This document shows positions 20,494 through 23,856 of a DNA stretch of 64,000 nucleotides, in pieces. Under the pieces are notes generated by a model. The model was not told the DNA's origin, ran no database searches, and was given only the letters and a program-made list of their open reading frames with translations. How positions within the stretch are numbered: the first letter of the stretch is position 1; every line of letters starts with the position of its first letter. The stretch comes from Eledone cirrhosa. Lineage: Eukaryota. The position numbers and the translations under genes are program-made. Where the stretch lies: assembly GCA_964016885.1 (NCBI GenBank), contig CAXHJY010001068.1, positions 1 to 64,000 on the forward strand, read 5' to 3'.

Positions 20494-20791
20494 CACAATT
20501 GGTATTCACCCATTTAAGGTGGGGCAGGTAATGTTGATATAGAACTCAATACAGCGTTGCAGTGGTAGATTCATCAAGGTAATGCTTTCGGGGGTTATGT
20601 TTTTGTGGTAAGTATTAGTCACATAAAGTATTTTCGAAGAATGTATTATATACAGGCTGTCATTAAAATACGTGTACTTTGAACAATGAAAATAAAACAA
20701 AAGTCAGGTGTAGGTCGTTAAGAGTGCTTCATTGTTTTACGATCGTTTCAGAACCCGCCCGTCCCCTCAATCTATCTTATTTCTCATTCTT

Positions 20792-20827
20792 TCTTCTGAT
20801 GAAGGACTAGCGTCCGAAACGTTAAGA
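20792..20827 (+). ncRNA. minimal type I hammerhead ribozyme (family E)
   Basis: UCUU-CUGAUGA-A-GGAC(UAGC)GUCC-GAAA-CG-UU-AAGA: 4-bp helix I, 4-bp helix II, palindromic ACGU helix III. The element continues to ~20915 and ends in (TA)n. Confidence 0.8.
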
Positions 20828-20914
20828 CCCTCTTCCTGCTATATCAAGCGTTAATCTAATATATCCCTTCCATATACTGTACCGATTGTGTTGTAATTTC
20901 TGTTTACCTTTTAC

Positions 20915-20971
<57 letters not shown>

Positions 20972-21009
20972 CAAGGACAATTTGTTAAGCCTCCATTACG
21001 TTTATTAAT

Positions 21010-21095
21010 GGATGACGCGCGTTTCGCTACTGATCGGCTCAAGTTTCGATCTGTATCGATCTGGCCTGACTCTGGAATGAAAAGCTCGTCGGACC
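21010..21095 (-). ncRNA. type I hammerhead motif with long helix II insert (core variant CCGACGA)
   Basis: Minus strand GGU-CCGACGA-GCU...AGC-GAAA-CGCGCG-UC-AUCC, with a palindromic GCGC helix III loop. Element 20967-21146 is flanked by (TA)n on both sides. Confidence 0.65.
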
Positions 21096-21145
21096 TCTTG
21101 ATTTGGGTGAACCTACAGTAACTTCACGTTACACTCCCTGGATGG

Positions 21146-21199
<54 letters not shown>

Positions 21200-21390
21200 C
21201 TCCGTATGTGGTTGACAGCTGAGAGAAAGGAGCACTCTACACCGAAGAAAAGTTTTAATATTAATCTTATTAAGGCTAAATAGTGGATGTTGTTATCCGG
21301 GATTTTTTAGTTTATCGAAGGGTCATCAGACCCTTCGATAAACAGGCGAAACTCCCCAGTGACAAGACTCACTATCTAGCCTTAATTATA
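21200..21390 (-). mobile_element. HHR-type mini-element family B, fold-back copy
   Basis: CTGATGA on the minus strand (tcatcag 21323-21329) inside the hairpin gtttatcgaagggtc-atca-gacccttcgataaac. The + arm carries ggcGAAActc. Confidence 0.75.
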
Positions 21391-21486
21391 TGTAGGAAAA
21401 GAGTCAGGACCCCGACGGCTGAGCTCCAGCCGTTTTGACAGCTAGATCTGAACTAATCCAGCAGTATATTATCACACTTTCTTTGT

Positions 21487-21518
<32 letters not shown>

Positions 21519-21520
<2 letters not shown>

Positions 21521-21703
21521 CGAAGGAAAGGAACCAGGTGGACCATAGCGCATCAGAGTACTCAATACTTTGGGTAGTAGAGTGGGTAATAGGAAAAGAC
21601 TCAGGACCCCGACGGCAGAGCTCAAGCCGTTTCGACGGCTATTTCTGGAGTCCAGAAATAGCCGTCGAAACGGCTTGAGCTCTGCCGTCTGGGTCCTGAC
21701 TCT

Positions 21704-21707
<4 letters not shown>
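21519..21707 (-). mobile_element. HHR-type mini-element family A, fold-back copy
   Basis: 57-bp inverted arms 21593-21707 around a 1-nt axis (21650). Each arm holds the HHR 3' half GAAA-CGGC..GAGCTC..GCCG-TC. (TA)n on both sides; a further partial copy lies at 21394-21487. Confidence 0.85.
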
Positions 21708-21758
<51 letters not shown>

Positions 21759-22398
21759 ACACACAAAATCAAGTAACTAGTGTTGTGTTCATTTTAAAAC
21801 CAATAAAATGTTGGAAGCGGTTAAACAAGTTTACAGATTATAGATAATAGCTTTTTAAATATAGATAGTTGAAATATATATATTTACTAATAGTTCCGTT
21901 TGAAATGTAAATAATTTCGACTAGAATTTGCGATAATTCCATCTTGAATCACGATAATTATATTAAGAATGGAAATAATTTCAATGTATATATATAGAGA
22001 GAGACATTTTTATTTGAAATTTATATTTGTTTTAAAAAGCTAAATATTTTCATTAGATAGATAATCGTTTAATAAAAAAAAAAGATAATTGTTCAATAAA
22101 TGTAGATAATTTCTTTTAAAATATAAATATATCTCTTTTAAGAAATATATTTAATTTATTTTATGACAATAATTAACTTTTCACGTAGATGATTCTATTT
22201 ATTTCTTTAAAATAATATGATATATTCGTTGAAAACTATAATAAAATAATGATTTTTTTTGATTTTTTTTTTCTTACTTGACAACGTTACGTCCATATGT
22301 CTATATATGTTTGGCAATTCTTAATATCACTGCTTACGTAAATTACTAACACACATGAACACATTCATATATATGACCAAAGAGGACCTTAAAATATA

Positions 22399-22439
<41 letters not shown>

Positions 22440-22441
<2 letters not shown>

Positions 22442-22750
22442 GTCCCCTTCGGTCACGAATGACCATTGTTTGTGCACCTAGAAAGTTCCGAGGCACTAGA
22501 CTGAGCAAGGTTATTTGTGGAAGACCAGCCGTCACCCATGTATACCAGACTCCCCTCTCCATGCCACCAATGTTGTCCAAGGGAAAGGCAATGGCCGATA
22601 CAGCTTGGCACCAATGACGTCGCAACTCATTTCTACAGCTGAGTAAACTGGAACCACGCGAAATAAAGTGTCTTGCTCAAGACCACAACGCACCTCCCGG
22701 TCCGGGAATTGAACTCACAACATTACGATTGTGAATTCAAAGCCAAGCGT
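22440..22750 (-). mobile_element. tRNA-derived SINE family 2
   Basis: Minus-strand B box gagttcaattcc followed by ttgagcaagacactttatttc..ctcagctgtagaaatgag. Homologous to 36495-36625 and 55640-55862; tail fragment at 42685-42750. Confidence 0.85.
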
Positions 22751-22769
22751 CTTCATATATATATATATA

Positions 22770-22945
22770 GAAAAGAGTCAGGAGCCCGACCATACAGGTG
22801 GCTTAGTTGGGATCTAGCTGTCAAAACGGCCGGAGCTCAGCCGTCGGGGTACTGACTCTTTTCCTATTACCCACTCTACTACTCTAAGTATCGGGTATCC
22901 TGGTGCGTTATGGCCCACCTGGTTTATTACCACAATTTCTTTGTG
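22770..22945 (+). mobile_element. HHR-type mini-element family A (+ strand, with short inverted 5' piece)
   Basis: gatctagctgtcaaaacggccggagctcagccgtcgggg...ttcctattacccactctactact..; flanked by TA/TG repeats. Confidence 0.85.
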
Positions 22946-22975
22946 TGTGTGTGCGCGCGTATATATATATATATA

Positions 22976-23162
22976 TGACGTCTGAGAGAAAAGAGTACTC
23001 AATACCGAAGTAAAGTGTTAATATTCAATATTATTAAGGCTAAAACGCGAGTTTCGCCTCTTTATCAGACTCATCAGACAAGAATTCTTGTCTGACGAGC
23101 CTGTGATAAACTGGCGAAACTCCAGAGTAACAAGAATCACTGTTTAGCTTTAATAATATTGA
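22976..23162. mobile_element. HHR-type mini-element family B, head-to-head inverted pair
   Basis: Axis at gaattc (23082-23087). The + arm is an intact HHR; the - arm has CTGATGA..GGCGAAACTC followed by a deletion. Confidence 0.85.
23084..23137 (+). ncRNA. complete type I hammerhead ribozyme (family B)
   Basis: Helix I AUUCUUGU/ACAAGAAU (8 bp); core CUGACGA (23092-23098); helix II GCCUGU/ACUGGC; GAAA (23116-23119); helix III ACUC/GAGU; predicted GUA cleavage after 23129. Confidence 0.88.
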
Positions 23163-23219
<57 letters not shown>

Positions 23220-23374
23220 CGTGCGTGCGTTTGATGTGTGTGTGTGTGTGTGCGTGCGTGTGTGTGATGTGTGTGGTGTGCGTGTGTGTGTGTGTGGTGT
23301 GCGTGTGTGTGTGTGTGAATATAACCGTTAAGGTATTTTTCTTGGTTATGTCAAAATTTATAAAACACACTTCG

Positions 23375-23435
23375 TATTTTATCTGATGAAAGCGTACCAA
23401 AGTTTTGGTACCCTTGAAATATATATAATAGAATA
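23375..23435 (+). ncRNA. complete type I hammerhead ribozyme (family C)
   Basis: Helix I UAUUUUAU/AUAGAAUA; CUGAUGA (23383-23389); helix II AAG-C-GUACCAA/UUGGUAC-C-CUU; GAAA; palindromic AUAUAUAU helix III; predicted AUA cleavage after 23427. Confidence 0.85.
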
Positions 23436-23493
23436 AATATGGTTTTATAAATATAGTTTCCATTTATTTAATATCATTGTATATATATAAATA

Positions 23494-23532
<39 letters not shown>

Positions 23533-23535
<3 letters not shown>

Positions 23536-23722
23536 CAAAGAAAGTGTGGTAAGATACCAGGTGGACCATAATGCACCAGAGTACTCAATACTTAGGGTAG
23601 TAGAGTGGGTAATAGGAAAAGAGTCAGGACCCCGACGGCTGAGCTCCGGCCGTTTCGACAGCTAGAATCTAGCTGGCGAAACGGCCGGAGCTCAGCCGTC
23701 GGGGTTCTGACTTTTTTCCTAT
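23533..23722 (-). mobile_element. HHR-type mini-element family A, fold-back copy
   Basis: Inverted arms 23612-23722 with axis at 23667 (gctaga-a-tctagc); TA-flanked. Confidence 0.85.
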
Positions 23723-23806
23723 ATATATACACCCCACTTTCAAGCGTGAACCTAATACTAACACTTCGTATTGTACTCTTAGCTTTGTTTTTAGTTTTCT
23801 GTTTTA

Positions 23807-23856
<50 letters not shown>

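Follow-up and report, generated by a model that had tools for sequence, protein, structure and literature searches.

The reverse transcriptases (RTs) of Penelope-like retrotransposons (PLEs) are the closest relatives of telomerase. The inverted-end architecture of PLE copies is already known (PMC3846280 and PMC8557442, both cited, like the other sources marked "in part", from a portion of their text), and active Penelope families have been reported in Octopus vulgaris (PMC13282606, in part), a result that serves as context only. In PAc, a Poseidon element of Anolis, the tail is delimited by two internal RT start sites, and cleavage and extension take place on both target strands; the protein is predicted to form a dimer, and an RNA that continues 3′ of the starts is required (PMC11167929); the choice of internal starts, the tails and the inverted ends produced by PLE RTs are described as unresolved in that study and in PMC8557442 (in part). 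Here we examine a 64,000-nt stretch of the Eledone cirrhosa genome (assembly GCA_964016885.1, contig CAXHJY010001068.1, positions 1 to 64,000; hereafter the window), in which eleven insertions lie between 20494 and 23808 in the order H, E, G, B1, A1, A2, gap, A3, B2, C, A4 and an E-like tail (Table 1). They represent seven families (H, E, G, B, A with two subfamilies, C and E-like), the letters A, B, C and E being those of a preliminary description of this DNA and G, H, F and S having been assigned in the present analysis. We regard it as probable that the whole is explained by eleven PLE ends having landed successively in TA repeats through hairpin-guided priming, as part of a genome-wide process.

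The cluster elements are probably 5′-truncated 3′ ends of PLEs, and open reading frames (ORFs) encoding RT and a GIY-YIG endonuclease are tied to families A, C and E. One family A locus (L281) carries, in order, an inverted short arm, a 470-aa RT frame, endonuclease pieces, the hammerhead, the tail and TA. The family A ORF has 82 database homologs, many of about 700 aa, and two of the three inspected show full RT and GIY-YIG-like motifs; the ORF itself has no Pfam or PDB match, and its placement in Atlas with RT/HTH clusters at 0.97 is a lead only. Read by eye, it has the traits of the Hydra clade, namely DKT, a CxCx5C linker, absence of CCHH, and CxxC plus CxH near the C terminus. For family C, a frame with the CxCx5C linker and the C-terminal motifs lies about 1.2 kb upstream, with two short TA runs between (by eye), and clear ORF pieces occur near the shared untranslated region in 4 of 25 loci. 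The family E ORF matches Pfam RVT_1 above the cut-off; its GIY-YIG match is weak (E 0.025), with a BLAST value of 1e-11 against Pfam-positive frames, and at two loci (L146, L147) a CX4CxxC linker and CCHH in the endonuclease, seen by eye, make it Neptune-type by motifs, a type not separated here from Nematis by a tree. Motifs of this kind suggest that A and C are Hydra-type and E is Neptune-type. It counts against the identification that the fetched loci yielded no ORF linked to B, G, H or the E-like tail; their architecture matches that of A and C. The 20 best Pfam GIY-YIG loci proved to be other PLE families, none from the cluster, and an open 733-aa Hydra-type frame (L287:3678-5876, − strand) considered as the B ORF belongs to a different family; the B copy beside it is a stub that lies in a TA run immediately upstream, which separates the two. 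Many intact 713-aa frames were found for family F (L400-L408 and others), which yielded 9,990 first-look candidates. The cluster itself is probably inert.

The density of the cluster was judged against 98 control stretches of 10 kb (980 kb), taken at round coordinates and thus evenly spread rather than random, with small chromosomes over-represented. A broad library built partly from these stretches gave 237 matches in the 980 kb, from which 0.8 insertions would be expected in 3.35 kb; the window has 11, the best control count is 7 (in 4 of the 98 stretches), and none of the 98 reaches 11. The pile-up is therefore real, and the nominal P of 1e-9 for its density is overstated because the region was picked after the fact. 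A library of five multi-copy families gave 74 control matches, with at most 5 per 3.1 kb. Insertion into TA targets is supported: 61 of these 74 copies touch a TA run, as against 25% of random positions, and 17 of the 74 do so on both sides. A separate 5.3-kb TA-rich microsatellite in the window (141-5458) held no PLE stub detectable with the libraries used, which argues against simple proportionality to TA length. All cluster elements are dispersed repeats except the E-like tail, which matched only itself in a search of the window and nothing in control DNA. Identities to the best other copy run from 80 to 100%, with old and young families interleaved, suggesting that the stack accumulated over time.

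The stack is an upper-tail event of this general process, ordinary in kind and extreme in degree. It consists of two chains, of six and five elements, divided by about 1 kb of DNA. With same-family neighbors merged beforehand, chains of one, two, and three or more elements number 148, 31 and 5, compared with 150, 28 and 6 for a geometric distribution and 182, 20 and 1.5 for a Poisson distribution, which fits less well. Extended to the whole genome, the geometric model would give 125-315 chains with at least six elements. The preliminary description proposed a self-reinforcing hotspot in which each insertion splits or regenerates a TA target; the TA targeting and the geometric chains agree with this proposal, and no excess over a TA-placement null was found with the five-family library. 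Self-reinforcement is thus plausible but not proven. Its absence, with independent insertions tracking pre-existing targets and a regional rate in a TA-rich, tolerant region, is a serious competitor that we doubt only mildly. Close pairs of the five-family library do not exceed the null (3 versus 3.1 expected at gaps of up to 100 nt; 8 versus 5.4-5.6 at up to 300 nt, p 0.14-0.19), a null that already includes runs split by insertions, and other elements are about as frequent in element-centered loci (49 in 111, or 0.44) as around TA runs (0.40); both results weigh against self-reinforcement. Moreover, counts per 10 kb correlate with the number of TA runs (Spearman 0.47) and are overdispersed (mean 2.4, variance 6.7), so that regional variation could produce geometric-like chains without self-reinforcement. 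Against this competitor stand the geometric chain lengths, the fact that the two elements differ in family at 42 of 53 direct links, and the presence of 9 elements on 13 TA runs where 0.9 would be expected (P 4e-7, for a case chosen after the fact). Direct neighbors occur in 16 of the 111 element-centered loci (14%), compared with 9% around TA runs.

Copies of families A, B, C and F terminate at one or other of two fixed 3′ positions. The distance from the cut site to the flanking repeat is bimodal (about 52 and 146 nt for C, 21 and 90 for S, 34 and about 90 for B), and the two end positions of family A lie 77 nt apart. In the pairs studied, an inverted 5′-truncated copy is joined to a copy with the tail at one end only, an inversion not seen for E. 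Inverted insertions combine one long and one short end in 61 of 69 cases overall; the A and B queries favored this form, and in control DNA the count is 14 of 14. In the cluster, 7 of the 11 elements were recognized by eye as pairs of this kind. The 8 exceptions among the 69 speak against a strict pairing rule. Nearly all A arms in the control set are truncated 3′ of the first half of the core, inside loop II, and E copies are often 100 nt longer and have no inversion.

Just beyond the short end lies a bulged hairpin of about 25 nt, with the form RCTC-stem-loop-stem-TN-GAGY. The strict pattern is present in 8 of 18 family tails, as against at most 2 in 2000 shuffles. We also searched 78 metagenome loci (from the best 80 of 485), obtained through an alignment of 20 of the 82 family A homologs, and a sequence-only pattern gave 73 distinct hairpin matches in 45 of the 78. 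Their inner positions pair in 71 of 73, 53 of 70, 37 of 47 and 24 of 40 cases, versus shuffled means of 56.9, 29.7, 17.8 and 16.0, and six pair types occur at positions 2-4. Among leaders of at least 150 nt (45 metagenome loci), 19 have two hairpins, 11 have one and 15 have none, and the spacing of the twin hairpins, 59-83 nt, is like that in the tails. The ends of insertions fall close to these hairpins. Examination of 34 metagenome loci left 13 informative ends, 9 loci having no 3′ copy and 12 running off the contig, and 8 of the 13 stop 2-5 nt before hairpin 1 or 2. In family F of this genome, the leader contains both hairpins, and the ends of copies precede them by 2 and 3 nt, and the short ends of A, B and C lie 3-5 nt before hairpin 1.

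Several results temper the importance we attach to the hairpin. The strict pattern is missing from 10 of the 18 family tails, E included, and the long-loop form of family H is present in only 2 of 14 copies; the 15 leaders noted above have no hairpin by the pattern used; the remaining 5 of the 13 informative ends lie at −13, −27, −62, +4 and +32; and the covariation shuffle ignores relatedness. Hairpin 2 was not found for A or C (an exact pattern search for C gave 0, and 20 walked loci contained no 5′ leader) and is also unseen for B. The B representative fails the strict pattern through a mutation, and a strict pair scan let no octopus pair through.

These positions suggest how the stubs may arise. 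A PLE protein, probably a dimer, would bind the two hairpins and nick both strands of a TA run. Each nicked strand would then prime cDNA just 5′ of one hairpin, with one RT per hairpin, and the two short cDNAs would be joined by their heads, in most cases in or close to the hammerhead. TA would then remain on either side and could serve as a target for the next insertion. Family A arms mostly begin within loop II, which fits cDNAs often stopping near the hammerhead. Judged from sequence, the hairpins likely position reverse transcription, and we lean, by a small measure, toward the twin leader hairpins being the protein-binding and template-positioning signals of Hydra-clade PLEs, with a dimeric, telomerase-related RT seated on both and one target strand for each. 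It is improbable, in our estimation, that the inverted stubs instead form by snap-back self-priming of a single cDNA, with the hairpin serving as a DNA or promoter signal or as an endonuclease site. The published interpretation is that the cDNA primes itself at palindromes in the junctions (PMC3846280, in part); many A junctions fall on short palindromes (by eye), and the tail of the Drosophila virilis element was required for endonuclease recognition (as cited in PMC11167929). Snap-back leaves unexplained, however, why the outer ends match both fixed sites, one each, in all 14 control cases, and why ends lie 2-5 nt before either hairpin; the G-U pairs and the one-sided bulge fit RNA.

The hammerheads of the cluster are mostly remnants. 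A type I core with its stems is visible in longer copies of A, B, C, E, G and H. In the cluster, 4 of the 11 elements have a whole core (E, B2 and C on the + strand, G on the − strand), A1-A4 and H retain the GAAA half alone, B1 is broken, and the E-like tail has no core. The missing half of the A core is a U3-A8 variant seen in longer A copies; a search for a canonical CTGATGA core in that family gave 5 chance-like matches. The CCGACGA (U4C) core of G is common to most of the 15 copies shown. Such noncanonical cores appear family-wide, as U4C in G (L267-L280) and apparently as U4A in F (L392-L421). Rfam gave no match in the window at the gathering score, the best being Hammerhead_3 with 21.6 of 48.5 bits at 23046-23097, and its miRNA-family matches are hairpin noise. 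A strict scan, which misses the family C core, found 49 whole hammerheads in the 980 kb of control DNA, versus 2, 3 and 3 in shuffles; extrapolated to the 3.0-Gb, microsatellite-rich genome, this gives about 1.4e5, or a background of about 1 per 20 kb. One control stretch (L219:6100-7910) contains a 311-nt hammerhead unit repeated in tandem in two arrays of opposite orientation, an arrangement that is retrozyme-like. Helix III is minimal or palindromic in the E, B2 and C hammerheads. Folding predicts paired stems I and II for B2 with probability 0.90 alone and about 0 with its upstream inverted arm, for E at most 0.09, and for C a mean of 0.24-0.69 depending on context. No cleavage was seen for single minimal PLE hammerheads (PMC4209133, in part), and the PLE hammerhead of the anole needs the PLE protein, RNA ends at its site not having been seen (PMC11167929). 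Efficient cutting by the cluster hammerheads thus appears unlikely from these predictions.

The preliminary description placed the cluster in an intron of a candidate peptide gene whose pre-mRNA its three + strand ribozymes could cut, a functional battery that we consider very improbable: the three whole cores do share the + strand and the C stems are predicted to form in some contexts, whereas B2 is predicted to be masked and E misfolded, published minimal hammerheads of this sort reportedly cut only as a dimer or with the PLE protein, same-family, same-strand partners for a dimer lie 7-10 kb off, whole hammerheads at this density are background in this genome, and no credible Pfam gene was found among 115 of 137 candidate frames of the window in a search that could miss short exons. 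That frame set left out 23 frames (21 in PLE stubs or the SINE-like repeat of the cluster, 2 tandem-repeat frames at 58.5-59 kb) and added a 60-bp repeat frame. The latter (31480-32850) is our guess for the peptide gene, for which no support was found; its sole Pfam match is DUF1381, with no single stretch passing, and its start lies inside a microsatellite and a PLE remnant. In the repeat itself (31786-32815), a 60-bp unit occurs 17 times at 99% identity; several frames are open across it, one of them with dibasic pairs.

Table 1. Features of the PLE cluster, in window coordinates; a dot marks features listed without a single strand
Feature	Position	Strand	Remarks
(TA)n run, 3′ end of element H	20473..20492	.	
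Family H 3′ end: type I hammerhead GAAA half plus about 240 nt (258-nt element)	20494..20751	-	Truncated at E junction, 5′ end to 5′ end; best other copy 85%
Family E 3′ end (probably Neptune-type PLE), whole minimal hammerhead	20752..20916	+	Core 20796; GUU site, predicted cut after 20823; monomer predicted to misfold; other copies 98%
Family G: whole core of the U4C variant (CCGACGA) in a short-end arm, and a 42-nt inverted fragment of the long end	20967..21145	-	Best other copy 89% over full length
Family B copy 1 (B1): long and short arms in inverted orientation; neither strand has an unbroken hammerhead	21200..21392	+	
Family A copy 1 (A1): short arm cut inside loop II plus 23-nt inverted long-end piece	21393..21489	-	Abuts B1, no TA run
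Family A copy 2 (A2, second subfamily): inverted long (-) and short (+) arms; no CUGANGA half	21520..21711	.	
Bulged hairpin 1, tail of A2	21560..21583	-	
Spacer without hammerhead elements: AT-rich single-copy-depth or low-copy DNA, TA runs, SINE-like repeat (22440-22745)	21756..22767	.	
Family A copy 3 (A3): long arm and a 21-nt inverted fragment of the short end; lacks the core half, with GAAA changed to AAAA	22768..22944	+	
Family B copy 2 (B2): inverted arms, whole + strand core	22976..23163	+	Core 23092; GUA site, predicted cut after 23129; predicted masked by upstream inverted arm; best other copies 80-82%
(TG)n microsatellite between B2 and C	23164..23317	.	
Family C 3′ end (probably Hydra-type PLE): short-end single arm, whole core	23323..23480	+	Core 23383; AUA site, predicted cut after 23427; other copies 99-100%
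Family A copy 4 (A4, probably Hydra-type PLE): long (-) and short (+) arms in inverted orientation, with the fold inside loop II	23535..23722	.	Best other copy 95%
Bulged hairpin 1, tail of A4, 5 nt beyond short end	23583..23606	-	
E-like 3′ tail without core, then (TA)n 23809-23854	23728..23808	+	E likeness by eye only

Every element listed in the preliminary description is present within about 10 nt of where it was placed, and the three + strand cores were confirmed; that description did not identify the elements as PLE ends. Its count of about ten hammerhead elements holds for insertions, of which there are eleven, and not for whole cores; the sequence that it took for a half-site (20734-20749) is there, as part of the H element. 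The elements are not separated only by TA or TG runs, as it had supposed: the spacer with its SINE-like repeat divides the two chains, and the H/E and B1/A1 junctions abut directly. The H/E joint (20751/20752) contains no TA, has at most 1 nt of microhomology and possibly records two different elements primed from both sides of one break. Further stubs of families B, C, E, S and A lie in the window at 14682-14836, 30765-31709, 35693-35886, 37296-37946, 42244-42448 and 60655-61171, with a second small cluster near 31 kb.

If true, the twin-hairpin reading would account for the tail of PLEs, for their inverted ends and for the way in which TA targets are restored so that stacks like this one can grow. 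The covarying hairpin of about 25 nt, 2-5 nt past both ends, could be mutated directly in an assay that already exists, and it is also a simple marker by which PLE stubs, very abundant and poorly recognized, could be annotated. As a fossil, the stack is dense but ordinary, and it corrects the idea of a ribozyme battery.

A literature search covering main texts found no description of the hairpin pair, the long-and-short rule or the stacks. Among the systems closest to this locus, metazoan retrozymes without long terminal repeats (non-LTR; PMC7229834 and preprint 10.64898/2026.07.22.740005, both in part) are likewise non-coding, have type I hammerheads and are PLE-related; they consist of a single unit repeated head to tail, every copy bearing a ribozyme, whereas the cluster mixes families and strands and, with whole cores in 4 of 11 elements, is not an array of tandem units each bearing a whole hammerhead. 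The minimal type I hammerheads of Cervera and De la Peña (2014; PMC4209133, in part) share with ours the extra base after A9, the short palindromic helix III, the U3-A8 variant of family A, single truncated copies and opposite-strand pairs. The available portion of that article reports genomes with as many as about 9,000 minimal motifs, compared with the roughly 1.4e5 whole motifs estimated here, and does not mention a family-wide U4C core like that of G. The Hydra clade of C-terminal endonuclease-containing (EN+) PLEs (Craig et al. 2021; PMC8557442, in part) shares the DKT motif, the CxCx5C linker, the absence of CCHH and the CxxC/CxH motifs, as well as canonical hammerheads, (TA)n insertion, an inverted 5′-truncated copy and a one-sided tail (A, C, F). 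Its tails are 30-40 nt, compared with 70-100 nt here, and the portion of the article available mentions no twin hairpin, long-and-short rule or multi-family stacks; copies here number as many as about 10^5 per family. PAc shares the two internal RT starts, the cutting and extension of both target strands, the AT-rich targets and the predicted dimer. There, the protein-binding motif has only been bracketed, within the first 172 nt of the ORF (PMC11167929), and the twin bulged hairpins are a candidate for such a motif in another clade.

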